This document shows, one piece after another, positions 1,372-19,286 of a stretch of DNA of 20,000 nucleotides (its first letter is position 1; each line of letters opens with the position of its first letter). Both the position numbers and the translations under genes were made by a program. The stretch comes from Basidiobolus ranarum (taxonomy: Eukaryota): contig JASJQH010006878.1 of assembly GCA_040143965.1 (NCBI GenBank), positions 54,159 through 74,158 of the forward strand, in the 5' to 3' direction. The notes under the pieces were generated by a model. That model was not told the origin of the DNA and did no database searches. It saw only the letters and a program-made list of their open reading frames with translations.

Positions 1372-3956
1372 ATGCCGGGTCAAAATCTCAAAAGTAACGT
1401 CGACAATGATGACAGCTCGTCTCTATTTATGATTGTATCCTTTTTATATAGTCCAACATACTAGTTTAGCCTATCTATACTTTACATACGTTTAATTCCT
1501 TAACACTGATCTATAGAGCGAAGAAGACATCGCATATGAAGAAGACCTTTTACGAAACCCTTATACCCTTAAAAGTTGGTTGAGATATTTGGATCACAAG
1601 AGTAACTCTTCACTCCAACATAAAATCTTTATCTATGAAAGAGCTGTCAAAGAACTCCCTGGTTCTTATAAGCTTTGGAAAGCTTACTTGGATCTTAGAC
1701 GTTCTATCCTCAAGGGTAAGAATCCTGTAAGCTTTGCTCCCGCATATGAAAAAGTGAACAATTGCTTTGAAAGAGCTTTAGTTTTATTACACAAGGTATG
1801 CCACTTCAGAAACCCCCATTCGCATCCACTACTTTGATTTTAACTAGATGCTTTGAAACTATAGATGCCTCGTATCTGGCTTGACTATTGTCACTTTTTG
1901 ATCAATCAAGGGTATGTTACAAAAACCCGTAGAGTTTTTGATCGCGCACTTCGTGCTCTTCCCATTACCCAGCATTCTAGAGTATGGGAATTATACTTAA
2001 GATTTGCGCGTCTGGTTGGTGGTGAAACCTCGTTACGTATTTACAAACGCTATCTTCAATTAGAACCTGACCATGTAGAGGAGTATGTTGATTTACTCAT
2101 TTCCTTAAAACGATACGACGAGGCCACCACTAAGCTTGCCGTAATAGCTAATGACGATAAATTCAAATCGTTACATGGAAAGTCTAAATATCAGCTGTGG
2201 ATGGAGCTCTGTGATATTGCTTGTAAACATCCCACAGAAATTAAGACCTTAAATATCGAACCTATTATTCGTGATGGAATTAAACGATTTACCGATCAGG
2301 TAGGAAAATTGTGGAATTCTTTAGCTAGATACTGGATAATGCAAAATCAATTCGAAAAAGCTAGAGACGTATACGAAGAGGGGATAAATTCTGTCATGAC
2401 AGTTCGTGATTTTACTCAAGTCTTCGATGCATACGCTGAATTTGAAGAGTCTGTTATCACATCTAAAATGGAATTGGTTGCTGAGCGAGCAGAAGATGGT
2501 GAACAAGATCCCGAGGAAGATTTGGATCTTGACTTAAGATTGATGAGATTTGAAAAATTAATGGATAGACGGCCATTCCTTGTCAACGATGTTCTCCTTA
2601 GACAAAACCCTAACAATGTCAGCGAATGGGAAAAACGTGTTGCCTTGTGGAAAGATAATGCTGAAAAGATTGTTGAGACATACACAACAGCCATAGCTAC
2701 TATAAATCCCAAGAAAGCCACTGGTAAACTCAATCAATTATGGGTGAACTTTGCTAAGTTTTACGAAAAAGGAGGTAACTTGGAAACAGCCCGTGCCGTT
2801 TTTGAAAAAGGAGTTTTGGTCAACTTCAAGTCTGTGAATGATTTGGCCGATCTCTGGTGTGAATATGCCGAAATGGAACTTCGACATGAGAATTTCGATA
2901 GGGCTGCTGAGATCATGGGTCGCGCGACTGCTCCTCCAAAGAACACCAAAGTCAGTTACCATGATGAATCGATACCGGTCCAAAATCGTGTCTTTAAAGC
3001 TTTGAAGCTCTGGTCGTTTTATGTTGATCTTGAAGAAAGTATTGGTTCTGTTGAATCCACTCGTGCTGTATATGACCGTGTTTTAGACTTGAAGATTGCT
3101 ACACCACAGATCATCATCAATTACGCCGCTTTTCTGGAAGAAAACAAATACTTTGAAGAGAGTTTCAAAGTATATGAGCGGGGTGTTGAGTTGTTCAACC
3201 ATCCAGTGGCTTTCGAAATATGGAATATCTACCTCTCCAAGTTCCTTGAACGCTTTGGCGGCTCCAAGCTTGAGCGCGCCCGAGATCTCTTCGAACAAGC
3301 ATTGGAGAAGTGTCCTGCTAAATTTGCCAAACCTCTTTATTTGATGTATGGCAAACTTGAAGAAGAACACGGTTTAGCCAAGCATGCCATGAAGATTTAT
3401 GATCGTGCTACTAGAGCAGTCTCTGATGAAGACAGATTTGAAATGTTTAATTTCTATATCGCCAAGGCCAGTGCCTCATTTGGTATCGCATCTACCCGCG
3501 AAATTTATGAACGTTCGGTGGAGGTTTTACCAGATCACCAAGCCAGAGAAATGTGTATGAGATATGCCGAGTTAGAAGTTAAGCTTGGCGAAATTGACCG
3601 TGCTAGAGCTTTATATGCATTTGGATCTCAGTTCTGCGATCCTCGAGTAAGTGTTAGTTGTTTAAGAGGATCTTTCTTCATAGTGTTGACCCTTATTTCT
3701 ATTTTAGATTGTACCTACGTTCTGGAAGATCTGGGAGAATTTCGAAATTAAGCATGGTAATGAGGATACTTACAAGGAGATGCTTCGCATCAAGAGAAGT
3801 GTTCAAGCACAATATAACACGGAGGTTAATTTCATCTCGGCTCAAATGATCGCTACTCGCCAGGAACAGCAGCAACAAGAAACTGAATCTAAGGCACCAG
3901 CAAGCACTGAAGTAGCTGGATCTGGAGAAATTGATATCGACGATATGGATCTCTAA
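1372..3956 (+). CDS. SYF1: Pre-mRNA splicing factor SYF1/XAB2 (HAT/TPR repeats), ~790 aa. Exons 1372-1434, 1517-1795, 1865-3646, 3708-3956
   Basis: Typical motifs: [85 protein letters not shown]. Three GT-AG introns join the ORFs in frame. Confidence 0.96.
1435..1516 (+). other. U12-type (minor spliceosome) GT-AG intron, SYF1 intron 1
   Basis: 5' splice site GTATCCTTT (1435-1443), branch sequence TTCCTTAAC (1496-1504) ending 12 nt before the intron end, and no polypyrimidine tract. Both signals match the U12 consensus exactly. Removing the intron keeps the reading frame. Confidence 0.9.
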
Positions 3957-4217
3957 TGGAAAGGATGATTGGAAGCCACGGAAGCGGCCCCTCTGTTTTT
4001 TACATGTTTTGATTTGAAGTCACCTATAAATGCAAATTCAATATATAAAAACTAGCTGTAAAATAGGAATCATTCAAGTTAATGTTTTCAGTGTATGGAT
4101 TTATTGAAACAGCGGAATTCACTTGCGCACACCAATTCTCATGATATATATAGTCGCATAACATGTCTATAAATTATAGGCGTATGTGAATAGTCGGTGT
4201 AGCTTGTATATCCTTCG

Positions 4218-5434
4218 TTATTGAGCTTTTAATAATTGTTCTTTTTCCATGGTGATCAGTTTGGCAAGACGTGTAGCTATGTTTTTTCCTGGAACGTTCC
4301 AAGTTTCACAGAATTTCTCAGCAACCTCACGAGGATCGTCAAATTCGTGTAGAACAATGGTTTTTCTCCCACCATCATGAATTTCGATATCTAACAACAT
4401 AATGATTTCCCCTTGCTCTATCCCTTGTGCAGTCTCTTCCTCACTTTCAGATGTAACATGCTGTGGATTTTTGGTAGTTGCCACTTCCGAAGCTGGGGGT
4501 TTTGTCGACTCCGATGGCTTATCTGAATTATAAGTAATGATCTCTTCAGCCGCATCTATTAGGTATTCCTGAGAGTCGTCATCTTCTGTAGGATCACTCC
4601 AATATTCTAACCCATCTATATCAGAACTACAATCGAATAACGTGCATTTTCGTTCAGTCTCTTCCAATTCCAACTCTGAAAACCCATCTATGATTATCCC
4701 TATTTTTTGATATTCGTCTTGCTCTGCCAAGTCATCCCAAGGTGTGGATAGCTTCCTTTCCGTGGATTGAAAATTTTTACTTGCATTCGGTTTGGGGTAT
4801 TTTTGAACTTCTTTACGCCTATTATGCTCTATGTACTCCGGCTTGAAATTTTTTCCTTGTCTATGTAATTGACCTGATCCTACTTCATACTCTGAAGTCT
4901 TTTTAATCGATACCGGCACATTAAATGATTGATTTTTTCTATTCTTGTTCTTATGTTTAGGAAGCGCTCTATTATCTGGGTTTGGTTTGTAGTTTTTTCC
5001 TATACGATGAAGACCACCAGCTTCTACTTCTCCGGCCGCTAACTTGCTCTTTTGAGGTCCTATGGTATGCCAAGCTGAAACGGCATGCTTTGGAAGCTTT
5101 GTAGAACTGGAATTGACATTCTTATAATCCTCCATTGTATCTAAATCACACGAACCATGGTCACTAAAACTTGGCTTGCCCTTTGTATAGTCAAATAGAT
5201 AACGATCTGTGGTATTTAGTTTATCTGTTTATATTTGTTTATCGAAATATAGGCTTTCTTACTTTTACCGGAGACATGTTTTTCTTTTCTTGGCCTACCT
5301 CCTTCGTTAATTGGTTTATAATTTTTACCAAGTCGATGCAAACCACCCAAAGCGACTGTTCCCTCTCTTCGATCACTTTCAACGGGACCTAAGGAATGCC
5401 AGGCTGATATTCTGTCCTGTTTAAGCTCGGACAT
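4218..5434 (-). CDS. Hypothetical protein (~386 aa) with 2.5 copies of a 32-aa N-terminal repeat, an acidic low-complexity middle and a compact PFU-like C-terminal domain. Exons 5434-5263 (alternative donor 5269) and 5206-4218
   Basis: ORFs 5216-5434 and 4218-5135 share the motif SAWHxxGP...GGLHRxGKNYKP. A 56-nt gtaaga...cag intron joins them in frame. Confidence 0.75.
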
Positions 5435-5883: not shown

Positions 5884-6571
5884 CTAATCCGTTCCAGTCA
5901 ATCCTTCGGACTTGTGGTTAGTTACAGTATGTTCAGCTCCAACTGATTTCAAATTTTCGATCTACATGACTTGAGATGTTATATGAAATGTGGAATATTG
6001 GCTGTAATAAGGCTATTGATTACCAAAGTGTAGTTACTCATCTCCCCTTCATATCGCGCTTTATCTTGGACTGCCAATTCAGCATAAGGCTACTCAATAA
6101 AGTTAGTACAAACACCCACAAATCCCAGAAATCTAGTGAGTACCTTTTTTTCGTCTTCACCCATAGTTTTCCACCTGGCTGCCAAAAGCTTTACCAAATC
6201 AGATGGTGAAGCATCGGGGTTGTTTTCTTTCTCAGACGCTCTGGTTCGTATGTTGGTTAGTATCTGTGTATATATGGTAAGCACTTTGCTTTTTATATTT
6301 GTAAAGACTACCTCTGCTCTGTTGCGAAGATTATGTACGAGCTTCTTGGCCTCTTCGGACGATCTTTCTTTCGGTCATCGTCGCCTTTGTCTGTCTTGGA
6401 TTTTCTTCCTCTCTTGACACCTTTTTCATTTGAGGTATTGGATTGAAGTCTTTTTGGCTTTGATACTACGTTACATATCACCTTTTGCATACTATAGGAT
6501 TTTTGGGTGCCTGCGTCGATACGTTTGCTCGTTAATTCGTTGGAGATTTTCTTTACTCCTGAGTATTCCAT
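5884..6571 (-). CDS. Single HMG-box protein (Nhp6/HMGB-type), ~166 aa. Exons 6571-6312, 6240-6144, 6089-6024, 5961-5884
   Basis: Spliced HMG box: KDRPKRPRSSYIIFATEQRASEKENNPDASPSDLVKLLAARWKTMGEDEKKPYAELAVQDKARYEGEM, preceded by a basic N-terminal region. The start codon and last exon are less certain. Confidence 0.85.
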
Positions 6572-8295: not shown

Positions 8296-9720
8296 ATGGT
8301 TCTCGAAGCTACTATGCTCATGTAAAGTTTCATTCTCATAATCGTACATCTAATTCCATGTTTATCAGGATCCTTACAATCGTTTACCTCCTACTTGTAA
8401 CATATATAGTTTAGATAACTCCGAATGGATGAGAAATGGCGATTACACTCCCACTCGATTGGAAGCCCAAGGAGACGCTGTCAACTTGATTTTCAACTCA
8501 AAGTTTCAATCTAATCCCGAAAATACTGTTGGTTTAATGACGATGGCAAGAAAAGGGTTTGTATTTATTTAAAAAGATGTGTGTGTGTGTGACTTCTTAA
8601 ATTTACACAGATTTTTTTTCTTCATGTAGTCCTGAAGTGTTGGTCACTTTAACTCGCGATGTAGGGAAAATTCTAAATGCTCTTCATAATATCAAGGTGG
8701 AAGGAAACTCCAACCTGACTACTGGAATCCAAATTGCTCAGGTTTGTGTTTATTTTAAGATACTCTTTATTTTTACTCCTTTGTTGACTTATTCACTTGT
8801 CTGTCGAAACTATACAGCTTGCATTGAAGCACAGACAGAATAAAAATCAGCAACAACGTATCATTGTCTTCGTTGGTAGTCCAGTATCAACCGATGAGAA
8901 AAGTTTAGTAAAGTTGGCCAAGAAAATGAAGAAAAACAATATCGCCATTGACGTCATCAACTTTGGTGAAGAAGGAGAAAATACCAGTAAACTTGAAGCT
9001 TTTATAACTGCTGTTAATAGTAATGATAATAGGTAAGACATAAACTTGCTTTACTTCATTCAGGAAATACAGCGATATATTAATGTATCTTTAATATTTT
9101 CTAGTCATCTTGTTACTATCCCACCAGGTCCTCATATTCTCAGCGATATTCTCCTATCCTCACCTATTTTCGCCGGCGAAGGTAGCTCCGTGCCCGGATA
9201 TAGTGGCTCTGGAGGCTCCTATGAACTTGGCGTGGATCCTAACCTTGATCCTGAACTTGCTCTCGCTCTTCGTATTTCTCTTGAAGAAGAAAAAGCTCGT
9301 CAAGAACAAGAATCTGCCAAGACTACCCAAGATAAAGAGGGCAACCTTGCCACTCCTCAAGCTACAGCCTCATCAGCTAATGCTGGCAACAGTGAAGAAG
9401 ATATGTTAGCCCAAGCCTTAGCCATGTCTATGGATAATGCTGATGGTAAGGATATTCAAATGGAAGATGTACCCGAGGAAGCATTGACCGAGGAGGAACA
9501 AATTGCTCGTGCCATCTCTTTATCCATGCAATCCGAATCCAACGACCAAAGTAACGCAGAAACCACATCCTCTGACTCCACCTTTATGAATTCAGTTTTA
9601 GAATCCCTCCCAGGCGTTGATCCAAATGACCCACGCGTTAAAAGTGCCTTACAAGGACTTTCCAGCAATCCCGATTCTGATAAAAAAGAGAAACAGAATG
9701 ATGATGAAAAGAAGGAGTAA
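8296..9720 (+). CDS. RPN10: 26S proteasome ubiquitin receptor Rpn10/PSMD4, ~371 aa. Exons 8296-8321, 8410-8556, 8630-8741, 8818-9032, 9105-9720
   Basis: vWA N-terminus [29 protein letters not shown], then [59 protein letters not shown], further UIMs and LPGVDPND. Confidence 0.97.
8578..8591. repeat. (TG)7 dinucleotide microsatellite in RPN10 intron 2
   Basis: tgtgtgtgtgtgtg read directly from the sequence. Confidence 0.7.
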
Positions 9721-10342: not shown

Positions 10343-11749
<1,407 letters not shown>

Positions 11750-12042: not shown

Positions 12043-13353
12043 TTATACAGAGCCACAAACAGCAGACTGCTTAGGTTCTTCAGGCTCGAATAGCATCTCT
12101 ACATCTTCGAATTCTGGTAGATTTTCCAAACAGGATTGCTGACGGAAAAGGTGTAAATAGGCATCGGTTCCATAGCCTTCCATTGACACTACATTTAGAT
12201 CGCCACCAAAGTATCTGGAGATAAGTCTAGCTACCGATAAACCATGGCCATACCCCACCAAGGGTATATCCATATAATGGTTAAAGTCGGTACCCATCAG
12301 AGAAGACCCGTTGTTGGATGGCATAGAATAGGTATATCTCCATAGGTGGTTGATTTTAGACATAGGGATGCCTCCACCAACATCGGACACTTTAATGGTG
12401 ACATCCTCACCACCAGCAACAATAACGATCTTCACAGGTGGTAGACGATTGGAATGCTGGTGGGTCTCAACAGTTGCTTTGAGAGAGTTTTTCAGGATTT
12501 CGAACAAGCTACGATGTAAATACTCTTCTATGTAAAGAGGAGAGACGTTGTTATTTTTGGAAATGATCTCTACCTCGGGTGCTTCAAAGCCATATTGGTT
12601 GGAGCAAATTCTACGAGCATCATGGGCAGCTTTCTTTGCCACAACCAATGGAGAGACTTTCTCGACGATACTACGTTCCCTCTCGTGGAGAGAAACATGT
12701 TCACTTAGTAGAGTTCGAGTGCCTAGAGCCATAGTGTAATATTTATCAAAGAACTGTTTGAAGTTATTCTCAGTGAAATCGATTTTTTTGTTGGTAGTAT
12801 CCAAAAGTTCTTGCAATCCACGGCCAATAGAGAGATTGTTTACTCTCTGACGTTGCTGTAACTCTTTCAATAGCTCAGTGAAGTCTCTTTCTTCTGATTG
12901 TGACATTGGCTTTGGTGTCGCGGATAGCATTGCGATATCTTCAACGTATCTCTCGGAGATCTTTTGAAATGTGGGTAAATTCGACAAGTTATATGGGACA
13001 TCGTGTGCATTGATCATCTTTAGGGTTTGAGTAAGTCTAATAGGCAACTCCTGGTGCAGGAACTGTGCAGTCAATAGTGGATTGTGTGTCTTTGCCACGT
13101 GATTACCGAAAGAAAAGAGGTGTTGTAGCTAGAATTATAAGTGTCAGTTAGTACTCACGGCGTACATTTTCACTATTCTCAAGAGACTCGAGAAACTTAC
13201 CGAGACACGGGTGATCTTGGAGTTTGCTAGTCTAATAATATGGCCTTTAGGAAGGGCTTGAAGAGCAGAAGTAGGAATCATAATGCTAACTACTTGTATG
13301 AAGTTCGGGTGTGGTAAATGCATCGGGAGGCTGTCGACTTTTATAACAATCAT
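12043..13353 (-). CDS. Alpha-ketoacid dehydrogenase kinase (PDK/BCKDK family, GHKL fold), ~412 aa. Exons 13353-13201, 13128-12043
   Basis: VSLQHLFSFG, FLHQELPIRL, N-box FEILKNSLKATVE, G1 KVSDVGGGIP, G2 PLVGYGHGLSVARLISRYFGGDLNVVSMEGYGTDAYL. One gtaagt...tag intron, in frame. The start codon is uncertain. Confidence 0.9.
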
Positions 13354-13732
13354 TGGGTCGCAACCAGACTATCGGGAGAATTTTAGTGCTTGGTGTCTAC
13401 CTAATCAACACTAATCTCAGGAGATTTCTTTAGAGGCCTCAAGCGTGATTCTATTCCAAAATCTCGAACGAGAAGTACAGCAAATCAGGGAATTCGCTAT
13501 ATAAAAATGGAGATGGCGACCCCACTGATAAGAGAGATTGGGTGTTTTGATAGACTGCGCTATATTTGGTTAGGTATTTAGATCTTATCACAAAGCGTTG
13601 ACAGATTAACACCGCCAATCCATGGAAGAACTAAATACTATAATTCGAACTTAATTATAGCAGATTCATTGGATTCGCTAGAGATGCAGAATCAACGGAA
13701 TCACTCATTGTTTGCGGATGTCTAGAAACGTG

Positions 13733-14061: not shown

Positions 14062-17000
14062 ATGTCCAATAAAGAGGTAACTACTCTGAACACATACTAC
14101 TAGCGTTTGTTCTTGTGGAGCTAATAATTTCTTAGTTGAAAACGTTCTTTGACTTTGATGAGAGCTTTGTACTTAGGATCCGACGACCGAAAAAGCCATA
14201 CTTAGGGCCACTTTCATTCAGTTGTGTCAGTACATATGGTATCCATGATGTGGGTATTTTCGTTCAAAACCTTCCACCTACTATGAAAGCTGCAGAGATA
14301 AAAAAGTTTTTTTCTACTTGGGGGGATGTTACCTATTGTGATATTTTAAAGAACAAATATACTTCGAATAGCAATAGAGCTATTGTTTGTTTCAGACCTC
14401 CACCGGTTTCTTTAAGTTTCATGGATGAAAACCTTCAACCTTTGCACAATGGAAGAAGAGGAGAATGTCTATATATGGATTTAACTACAAATACTGCCCA
14501 GAAACTAAACCTTAGAGAAAAAGGGGAATCTGCCAAATCCCAAATTCGGTTCGATGCTCTTGATTTTAGCATGGGAGTTATCTCAAATGACAACAGGTTC
14601 GTGAGTGCGTGGAAACCCTCAGGTGAGAGTATCTTTGAGATAGATTACCATAAACGAATTATATACGTAAAATTTCGTCACAAGGACCAATTGTACAGAG
14701 TGGGGGTCATGTTTAATGAGATTTACAAAGGAATTGTGTTGGATGATAGTGATACGAACAAGTATGTATTGTACATACAGTTTTCTCGTCCCCCTTTCTT
14801 GTGGCACAAACAAGATTCGCTAGCATTACTTCTATCAACATTTGAAAATTGGAATGAAGAGAACTCGTGGCAACGTGCTTCACATATCATTAATCAGGAT
14901 TCGAATAGCACAGAAGTGGACGATTCAAGAATCAGTATTGGTGACTTTTTTGCTTATCGAATTAGTCTTCCTTTGTCGAATTCTTATGGAGAGTTATTTA
15001 AGGATTCTATTGATGATTTAATGCGATACAACCTTGTACCTCATGGAGTTGCAGTTCAACCTCCCACGGTGACGGATATTTCGAAGCTGGAGACAATTGA
15101 TATTGCCACATTACTACCGTTTAAGTTATACTACTTGATAGTGTGTCTGATATGCGCACAGAAGATAAGTTTATACAGCCTTTCCGAAGAATGTATTACC
15201 TATGTGAATAGTCTAGATCCTGATATGGCCGAGCATATATTTATGCGTATGATAGAGACTGAAGACTTGCTCGAAAACCCTTTGACTTTTATTCAGCAGG
15301 CAGTCTCAAGGCTTAGTAATGGCTACATCAAATTGGATGAAGTTCCTACGTACAATACGTGGATTCGCAGGGCCATCGTTACTCCAAGCAGAATCTACTA
15401 TCTACCACCAACTCTAGAGGTATCCAATAGAGTGGTGAGGCATTTTCATAAGCAGCAAGATTACTTCATCCGAGTGATATTTTCTGATGAGCACTTTGAG
15501 AAAGTTGGCACTAATCGATTACTTTATCAACCAATATTCGATCGAATCGAAGAGTTAATGAACAAGGGATTTTATCTCGCTGGTCGTCATTATAGATTCC
15601 TAGCCTTTTCTTCTTCGCAACTTCGTGAGCATTGTTGTTGGTTCTTTGCCGATACACCCGATGGAATTGATGTGGATTTCATACGTTCGTGGATGGGTGA
15701 TTTCAGTGAAATCAAAAATGTGGCTAAACATGCCGCTCGTATGGGACAATGCTTCTCCAGTACTCGGCCGGTGAAAACTCTAAAAAAAGAGCAAATTCAA
15801 GAGATACCGGATGTCATTCGAAATGGATATCTATTCTCAGATGGAGTTGGAAAGATCTCTATGTCGTTAGCTAAGGAGATTGCCGATCTTTATAAACGTG
15901 ACTCAGTTTCTGGTGCATTCCAGATTCGTCTTGGTGGCTATAAAGGAGTGTTGGCGGTTGCTCCCGAGAGCGAGATGGGTGATTGTTTGGTTCAATTGCG
16001 TCCAAGTCAAAAGAAATTCAACTCAGATCATCGTGCCCTGGAGATCATCAAAACCGCTGAGTTTATGCCAGCTTATCTGAACCGACAAGTAATCGTATTG
16101 CTGACTACCCTGGGCGTTCCTGACTCAGTGTTTATAGCATTACAAGAGGCATATTTGCGGGAAATGGAGGAGATTATCCATGATGAAGTGTTGGCCCTTA
16201 AAATCTTAGCACTTCATTGTAGTTCCAGTTGGATCATTGGGCCTTTAAGGAAAATGATTCAAAGTGGATTTCTGAAATATGGAGATAATTTTACGAAATC
16301 CATACTATCGTTACTGAGAATTAATGTTCTGAAAGATATTAAATACCGGGCGAGAGTACCAATCGAATTAGGGGCTCATTTAATGGGCGTTATGGACGAA
16401 ACCCAAACGCTTCGAGAAAATCAAATATCGCTTCGCTTTACTGATCCTAAACAGAACAATCTCATTAGAAGTTACGTTGGACCCGCTCTCGTTGTCCGAA
16501 ACCCATGTCTACATCCCGGTGATATTCACATGGTTGAAGCTGTCGATTGTCCACAACATCACTCTCTCATAAATTGTGTCGTCTTCTCCTCACAAGGCAG
16601 CCGAGACTTGCCAAGTCAATGCAGTGGTGGAGATCTGGATGGAGATACGTATATGGTTTTATGGGACGAACGTCTCTTTCCACCTCGTAAGGTACCACCA
16701 GTAAGCTATACTAAGCAGCAGAATGATGTAGTCAGTAAGGTTACAATCGAGGACACCGCCAAATTTTTCGTAAATTACATTGTTTCCGATAATCTGGGCG
16801 AGATTGCAAATGCCCATCTATCTTGGGCTGATCAGTCTTTAGCGTCTGCTTCATCAACCGAATGCACTTGGCTGGTTCATCTACATTCCAAAGCAGTGGA
16901 TTTTGTTAAAACCGGAATACCTGCGGAGTTCAGTTACTCCTTACGTCCGAAGTTGTGGCCAGATTTCATGGAGAAACCAAGCAGATTTACATACTCATCT

Positions 17001-17651
17001 GTTAGAGCTCTGGGTAAAATGTACAGAGACGGAGCCATGAAGCTACAAGGGAAGAGCAGACACCCGCCAATCACGGATGTGGAGGAAGTTCAGTTTGACT
17101 CCAAATTAATCGTGACTGGATATGACAAATACGTAGTAGAAGCTAGACGTTTGAAACACGAATACGACCTAACTCTAAAGAATGTCATGAATCAATTTGG
17201 AATAGAAAGTGAGGGAGAAGTCGTTTCTGGGTTTATTCAAAGTTATCCTCCTACAATGATCCGAAAGAAGGAAAAGACAGCGCTTCGAGAAACACTAAGC
17301 AATACTATCAACGTAATCTGGAGAACCTTCCGTAAACATTTTCATGATGAATTTCCGAAACCTACAGTGAAAGATGAGCGGCTAACGGCTGCGATGCAAT
17401 TGGAACGTAGAAGAAAGGCGAGTGCTTGGTACTATGTGACATATAATTCGAATGAGATCTCGCATCAGAAAAATCGGTATTATTATGGAGCTAACGATGA
17501 AACCATCCTAAATCCTCTTTCTGCGACCAATTTTAGTTTGTGCTATGGAGACAAGAAAGAAAAACCAATTTTCATATCCTTTCCTTGGATTGTACATGAT
17601 ATTTTATGCGAGATTCTGCTAGAAGCGACATTGTTCCGTAAAGCCAATTAA
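14062..17651 (+). CDS. Eukaryotic RNAi RNA-dependent RNA polymerase with an N-terminal RRM-like region, ~1176 aa. Exons 14062-14076, 14136-17651
   Basis: Motifs LEVSNRVVRHF, FLAFSSSQLRE, KHAARMGQCFSST, FSDGVGKIS, AFQIRLGGYKG, RNPCLHPGD, catalytic SGGDLDGD (DLDGD at 16632-16646) and HSKAVDFVKTG. The ORF track's TTG start sits directly after a tag acceptor; the upstream exon is ATG TCC AAT AAA GAG|gtaact. Confidence 0.95.
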
Positions 17652-17810: not shown

Positions 17811-19286
17811 TCACACGGTATTGGATGACCCAATATAGAGTAGAGAATGGAAGGCTGTGTAAAGAGCGGGTAAGTATACGGAAGGTCCAATGAAAGAATC
17901 AGTTTTACTTACGTTGTCGACAAATGGGGCATTTGCTACTTTGACACCTCAAGACCTCTGCACATTCTTTGCATAAGCACATATGTCGACATGGCAAAAC
18001 GGTAGTATCGCGTAGATCCGACATACAAATCACACATTCGCGAGCAGATGAAGGGTCATCCTCGTTGGTTTGAAGAGTATCTTGGTGTGATTGTGACTCT
18101 GAAAAGCCATAAATCTCTTGCAAGACAAAAGAGATCCCATTGATCTAATTGATGAAAGATGAATAAACTTGAAGATAAACAAAGCAACTCCTTGATCGTT
18201 ACCTTAACTTTTTGCTTCAGAGTCTGAATATCATATGTTCCTTCACTATTTACTGTCAAACTTATAAATGTGGATAGTGTATCAGGAACTTTGTCTACAT
18301 AATGTCGTTAATCATCAAGAGCCTTCATTGTAGACCTATTGAAATATACGTACCACCAGTGGTAATTGTTTCCAGCACAATGATTAAGGGATAACACAGG
18401 CTGCTTCGGTGGGTAGACGAAGTATCGTCCTGTATGATGATGCTATCTAAAGTTGGCTCCTTGAGTTCGAATCCGACTTCGTCTTCAGTATTTTGGTCAT
18501 TTTCAGGCTTGGGTGAATATTCATTCTTCGGTATATTCAATACAAGGTCACCCGGTTGAAACTTGTGAATGTCCAGTAATTGGTCGTTGGGCAAATAAAA
18601 CTTTTGGTTCAGTCCTGACTGAAAATTGAAAGTTGGAATAGTCTGTGAGGGGTACTTGAGTTTGTAGCTAAAGAGTATTGTGAGTGAAACTAATTATTTT
18701 AGTACGATAGATAAAGTAATGTACCCAACGCTGGTATCTTCATTTCCCCAAACCTCTTGCGCACACCAATAAAGTTTAATCTTGCAAGGATACAGGGAAT
18801 CAAAGGTAAATTCTATATTGTATTTGTTCCCAACCAGTCCTTCTTCATCATGAAAGTCGGTTTTAATAAGACTTAGAGTGGGGATTTTCAAGTTAATACT
18901 TGAACGAAATACTGTACAAGAGGACTTTATGCGTACCCGTAAGTAATTGCAAGTCAAATCCGAAATCAATATTAAGAAAAACTTACGTCTCGTCCACCAG
19001 TGCCATTGAGTGGTTCTGTGGTACTAGAGCCTACGCTGGTCTCATTTGCCTGAGTGCCTACACTTGCTTCACCTCTAGTAGTGCCAGAGCTCTCAGTAGC
19101 ATTTTCATCTATAAGGGCGAAGTGGGGACCAAAATACAAAGCTTGGGATAAAGAAAGATCTGCTGTCTCTGGTAAACTAAAGTTTCGCCCTTCTTCATGA
19201 TTGGTAACTTCCGGATGTTCTCTCGGAGTAAAGGAGAATATTGAACGAATACGTGCCGACAGAACGTCGAAAGTGCCGTTGGACAT
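17811..19286 (-). CDS. MGRN1/RNF157/LOG2-family RING E3 ubiquitin ligase, ~393 aa. Exons 19286-18987, 18924-18725, 18667-18354, 18294-18203, 18144-17913, 17854-17811
   Basis: RSSINLK, YNIEFTFDS, GLNQKF, YPLIIVLE, LKQKVKINGISFVLQEIYG, and RING [48 protein letters not shown]. Five GT-AG introns, phase-consistent. Confidence 0.92.

Follow-up and report, generated by a model that had tools for sequence, protein, structure and literature searches.

We analyzed a 20,000-nt window of the genome of Basidiobolus ranarum, a species that the NCBI taxonomy places in Basidiobolomycota. The gene under study lies on the forward strand and encodes the splicing factor SYF1 (XAB2) in four coding exons. Its parts are:

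1372-1434, forward strand: SYF1 coding exon 1, 21 codons, beginning with the first ATG of the open frame; the spliced translation is that of database protein P0001
1435-1516, forward strand: intron 1, predicted U12-type (minor) GT-AG intron, 82 nt, phase 0; the combined pattern is unique in the window
1517-1795, forward strand: exon 2, 93 codons; Pfam HAT_Syf1_CNRKL1_N, E = 3.9e-36
1796-1864, forward strand: intron 2, U2-type, 69 nt, GTATGC...TATAG
1865-3646, forward strand: exon 3, 594 codons
3647-3707, forward strand: intron 3, U2-type, 61 nt, GTAAGT...TTTTAG
3708-3956, forward strand: exon 4, ending with the stop codon TAA at 3954-3956

Joining the segments 1372-1434, 1517-1795, 1865-3646, and 3708-3956 gave 790 codons plus a stop codon. 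The resulting protein and P0001, named 'pre-mRNA-splicing factor syf1 [Basidiobolus ranarum]', have identical sequences; P0001 was the best match at 100% identity (4493 proteins at E ≤ 1e-30 among 8000 scored candidates). P0001 is possibly an ab initio gene call, and its agreement with our model is not transcript evidence, because any gene caller would accept a GT-AG intron. Over its full length the protein is covered by the N, M, and C families of HAT_Syf1 in Pfam, namely PF23233 (E = 3.9e-36 and 1.9e-46), PF23220 (1.3e-108), and PF23231 (6.9e-174 and 1.4e-23). In a PDB search the human SYF1 chain 5mqf_M matched residues 20-758 with an E value of 6.2e-301, and further spliceosomal SYF1/cwf3 chains were also matched. 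The Pfam families and the match to the human chain confirm the gene as SYF1, the name given to it in the first-pass annotation.

Several other genes share the window. At 14136-17651 (forward strand), 1171 codons without interruption code for an RNA-dependent RNA polymerase (PF05183, E = 1.1e-187) that has an RRM at its N-terminus; it looks like an intronless RNAi-type polymerase beside neighbours that appear rich in introns. VWA_2 and UIM domains spread across at least four open segments at 8354-9720 (forward strand) have the look of a gene for an Rpn10/PSMD4-like ubiquitin receptor of the proteasome, interrupted by several short introns. Pfam also identified a mitochondrial PDK/BCKDK-type kinase at 12043-13368 (reverse strand), an M24 metallopeptidase at 10343-11749 (forward strand), RING-finger genes at 557-802 and 17905-18144 (both reverse strand), and an HMG-box gene at 6090-6374 (reverse strand). 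For the 336-codon frame at 4218-5228 (reverse strand) no Pfam match was found.

U12-type GT-AG introns have the 5' splice site consensus RTATCCTT and the branch-site consensus TTCCTTRAY; the distance from the branch site to the 3' splice site is roughly 10-20 nt, and a polypyrimidine tract is absent. The first intron of SYF1 reads ...TTT ATG ATT/GTATCCTTTTTATATAG...TTTAATTCCTTAACACTGATCTATAG/AGC GAA GAA... (slashes mark the splice junctions), and its signals lie as follows:

1435-1443, forward strand: 5' splice site GTATCCTTT, which fits the U12 consensus RTATCCTT and stands directly at the exon boundary
1496-1504, forward strand: branch-site motif TTCCTTAAC, with A1502 or A1503 as the candidate branch adenosine
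1515-1516, forward strand: 3' splice site AG, 13-14 nt past the branch adenosine, without a pyrimidine tract

The exact U12 donor and the exact branch motif close to the AG, as described before for this intron, were thus found again at these coordinates. Counted to G1516, where the intron ends, the distance is 14 nt for A1502 and 13 nt for A1503, and the 12-nt spacer ACTGATCTATAG between the branch adenosines and the AG is not rich in pyrimidines. The donor has C at positions +5 and +6; GTATGC and GTAAGT are the U2-type donors of the other two SYF1 introns. Donor, branch motif, short distance, and lack of a tract all place the intron in the U12-type GT-AG subtype.

We compared these signals with chance expectation in the window. 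Over the two strands RTATCCTT matched five times, where shuffled sequence averaged 2.0; the donor alone is not significant, because 10 of 200 shuffles also reached five matches. The motif TCCTTAAC had one exact match in the window, among 25 sites with at most one mismatch (19.1 expected). When donor, branch motif, and AG were required in the right order and spacing, the window contained a single match and none of the 200 shuffles contained any. The RTATCCTT sites at 4208 and 17574 (forward strand) and at 9448 and 18786 (reverse strand) have no branch-site partner, lie in coding or intergenic context, and were rejected, and a looser script scan of the window found no second credible U12 candidate. 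At the first of these sites, 4208-4215, the sequence ATATCCTT corresponds to the consensus of AT-AC-type minor donors; it lies between the SYF1 stop codon and the reverse-strand frame 4218-5228 and, lacking a branch-site partner, most likely arose by chance. It had also been claimed that every other intron in the window is of the U2 type. This holds for the other two introns of SYF1 (GTATGC at 1796 and GTAAGT at 3647). For the neighbouring genes it rests on a frame-joining heuristic, which returned donors of the GTAAGT, GTATG, and GTAAC types and is too noisy for a clean list of introns.

We conclude, with a probability of about 0.88, that 1435-1516 is a genuine U12-type GT-AG intron, the first of B. 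ranarum SYF1/XAB2, and that it would be removed by the minor spliceosome. From the signals and the published data on a sister species we infer the following course of splicing in vivo. As in U12-type splicing elsewhere, the U11/U12 di-snRNP would recognise GTATCCTTT and TTCCTTAAC together, the branch would form at A1502 or A1503, and exon 1 (1372-1434), which supplies the start codon along with residues 1-21, would be ligated in phase 0 to exon 2, which begins at 1517.

The GT-AG termini would also suit removal of a merely U12-like intron by the major (U2-type) spliceosome, or the minor system of this lineage might be defective. We regard both possibilities as very unlikely. The donor has no G at +5 and a pyrimidine tract is absent, and 13-14 nt separate the exact 9-nt branch motif from the AG; that both motifs were kept exact is hard to explain without recognition by U11/U12. 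A defective minor system could be argued from Basidiobolus meristosporus, for which U4atac is uncertain, the reported gene being putative, divergent, of low confidence, and detected only at a lowered threshold (PMC11347168). Against this, genes for U11, U12, and U6atac are reported in B. meristosporus (PMC11347168), as well as more than 230 such introns, with 249 and 237 counted in two surveys (PMC10639083 and Olthof et al. 2024, PMC11347168, respectively). The published surveys give this species the highest density of minor introns in fungi (PMC10639083, PMC11347168). The claim of the first-pass annotation that B. ranarum has a working U11/U12 system draws its support from these reports on its congener. 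U11, U12, and U6atac are likewise present in several mucoromycote and zoopagomycote fungi (PMC11347168). The 20-kb window itself had no Rfam match at the gathering score.

A further reading holds that the gene model is wrong, that 1435-1516 is no intron, and that SYF1 starts elsewhere. Exon 1 comprises just 21 codons, most of which (residues 1-17) encode sequence that is not conserved, as such a reading would have it; we nevertheless consider it the least probable of all, because the end of exon 1 aligns with a motif conserved in orthologs, the frame of exon 2 is closed directly upstream, the N-terminus of P0001 is identical, and the splice signals are exact. The C-terminal LFMI of exon 1 aligns with [YFL][ML]I of the orthologs. 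The isoleucine at the junction is invariant in the six aligned orthologs from early-diverging fungi, where hydrophobic residues precede it. By motif, the junction was placed in 44 of the first 61 matches; 39 of these orthologs have isoleucine there, three have N or T instead, and in two the protein begins right at the junction. The position of the junction agrees both with the identity to P0001 and with the conserved ortholog motif.

Three other SYF1 predictions vary at this point. Those of Paraglomus occultum (P0007) and Circinella minor (P0024), both labelled 'partial', start at the residue right after the junction, and that of P. brasilianum (P0008) has unrelated sequence ahead of it. This suggests that an intron may also interrupt SYF1 at this junction in Paraglomus and Circinella, with a first exon that the gene callers missed.

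The earlier claim that the SYF1 protein depends on removal of intron 1 was borne out by the reading frames. TAG at 1514-1516 closes the exon-2 frame immediately upstream, so that the conserved N-terminal HAT repeat can be reached by splicing only, and ATG 1372 is the earliest ATG of the exon-1 frame, which opens at 1300. If the intron is retained, translation begins with MPGQ... and meets a stop within the intron:

1462-1464, forward strand: TAG, first in-frame stop upon retention of intron 1, 30 codons in

An early in-frame TAG had been predicted before at 1468-1470; the stop exists, but that coordinate is off by six, as 1468-1470 reads AGC. As judged from the frames, an alternative start for SYF1 would be impossible, with one stop upstream of exon 2 and another upon retention. 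An essential gene of the core spliceosome would be inexpressible unless a minor intron is removed.

The retention stop had led the first-pass annotation to propose that the intron could act as a rate-limiting switch coupling the two spliceosomes. In its fuller form, the idea is that the intron is regulated and slowly spliced, and that the stop sets the dosage of SYF1 and ties the supply of the NTC to the activity of the minor spliceosome. In animals, a rate-limiting control through the slow splicing of minor introns has been proposed, and in B. ranarum the retained intron runs into TAG after 30 codons with no in-frame restart nearby. The sole basis for the switch is a premature stop, such as would arise from any phase-0 intron that contains a stop and is retained, and we did not adopt the idea. 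SYF1 works elsewhere without a minor intron at this position, which among the 80 loci described below holds a U2-type intron in two and is read through in 77. A Basidiobolus genome has about 250 minor introns, and the presence of one in a splicing gene calls for no special cause. In Rhizophagus, a study reported no link of minor splicing to proliferation, and its authors argue for neutral retention (PMC10639083). We therefore rate regulation of this kind as unlikely. Constitutive removal is the simpler expectation: the intron would belong to the roughly 240-250 minor introns that characterise the genus and would need no special regulatory role. SYF1 is also a component of the catalytic minor spliceosome, and so any dependence of the kind proposed would be a feedback loop and not a coupling of separate machines.

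We then asked whether other SYF1 genes have an intron at this position. Metagenome contigs scanned with the N-terminal alignment yielded 351 confirmed relatives, and the best 80 of the 351 were examined, the junction being located by motif in 66 and by tblastn and inspection in 14. This is a small sample, in which many loci look like transcripts and some are genomic by their flanks. The sequence is continuous across the junction in 77 of the 80 loci, including plant-like ones, which read ...DLYP/SEDDLLYEE, and animal-like ones, which read MPEIIF/EEEDLPYEE; one locus (L018) begins at a contig edge. In the remaining two, L036 and L031, an intron interrupts the gene precisely at the junction, and in each case the donor marks it as U2-type:

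L036: ...SINI/GTACGA...(140 nt)...TTTTTTAG/TDKDVAFEE
L031: ...VLLI/GTAAGT...(64 nt)...CTTTAG/TPEDLPYEE

L036 is Mortierellaceae-like, with 81% identity to P0019 of Linnemannia elongata, a protein annotated with the same join, ...SINI/LDKD, at its N-terminus. L031 belongs to an unplaced lineage and has at most about 54% identity to any SYF1 among the 120 matches listed. A comparison of the intron type in orthologs, as suggested at the outset, thus found the position occupied in two of the best 80 of 351 loci, and occupied by U2-type introns in both; this is the new observation of our study. A Mortierellaceae-like fungus and another lineage share the position, and the plant and animal loci examined have no intron there. 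No credible pair of U12 donor and branch site was found in the 80 SYF1 loci (302,250 nt), which contained only loose chance pairs. One of these, at position 2231 of L049, was rejected because it lies outside the coding match between flanks that are not coding, and GTATCCT in L074-L076 turned out to be the coding sequence of ...DLYP/S.

Inside the L036 intron (794-933) stands an exact TCCTTGAC that agrees with TCCTTRAY, the consensus of U12 branch sites. It is too distant from the 3' splice site, 41 nt upstream of it, to act in U12 branching. A rough estimate puts the expected frequency of such 8-mers at about one per 10 kb, and the motif could be left over from a former minor intron or be a product of chance.

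Because L036 and L031 carry an intron exactly there, the position predates Basidiobolus; its minor identity has so far been seen in B. ranarum only, within the small sample covered here. Two histories would account for this pattern. The more likely is that an ancestral U12 intron was kept in Basidiobolus and turned into a U2-type intron elsewhere, a direction that may fit the exact TCCTTGAC inside the L036 intron. A conversion from U2 to U12, or another lineage-specific gain of minor identity, at an old fungal position in Basidiobolus seems doubtful to us. If it were true, it would offer a concrete, datable example of how Basidiobolus became the fungus richest in minor introns, and it would bear on the low minor-intron density that has been reconstructed as ancestral for Zoopagomycota (PMC10639083). 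As the intron types at a single position contrast, SYF1 intron 1 is a handy single-locus marker for retention versus gain of minor introns in Basidiobolus.

The distribution of minor introns in fungi agrees with the earlier statement that Dikarya lost the minor spliceosome and that some early-diverging fungi kept it: the available text of Larue & Roy (2023; PMC10639083) reports no convincing minor introns in Ascomycota and Basidiomycota, and 205 minor introns with all four minor snRNAs in Rhizophagus irregularis. It is already known that Basidiobolus is the fungal genus richest in minor introns. Since roughly one in 180 introns there is minor, a U12 intron in a 20-kb Basidiobolus window is unremarkable. 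In our literature search no title or opening of an abstract pointed to an earlier account of a minor intron in SYF1/XAB2, and the names 'XAB2' and 'SYF1' do not occur in one text supplement of Olthof et al. 2024 (PMC11347168). Our results add, on raw sequence, a second Basidiobolus species with textbook minor introns, as expected from the biology of the genus, and SYF1 intron 1 could serve as a natural reporter of minor-spliceosome activity in a fungus.

Compared with known systems, SYF1 intron 1 shares with the U12-type GT-AG introns of animals and plants the RTATCCTT donor, TTCCTTRAY near the 3' splice site, and the absence of a pyrimidine tract. At 82 nt it is short beside the U12-type introns of animals, and its phase 0 is the rarest among minor introns, in animals and plants as well as in Rhizophagus (PMC10639083), which is a weak statistical point against the U12 reading. 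The introns of L036 and L031 are identical to it in position and phase, following an ...I codon and preceding [ST]xxD[ILV]xxEE, and differ from the U12-type intron of B. ranarum in having U2-type donors, GTACGA (140 nt) and GTAAGT (64 nt). Rhizophagus irregularis is also an early-diverging fungus with minor introns, whose motifs closely track the animal and plant consensus (PMC10639083), but it belongs to a phylum other than that of B. ranarum. The Rhizophagus-like contig L001 (about 94% identical to P0004/P0005) is continuous across the site and is uninformative on the presence or type of an intron there, because it may be transcript or genomic. The closest known counterparts are the minor introns of B. 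meristosporus, a different species of the same genus with introns of the same class as SYF1 intron 1.
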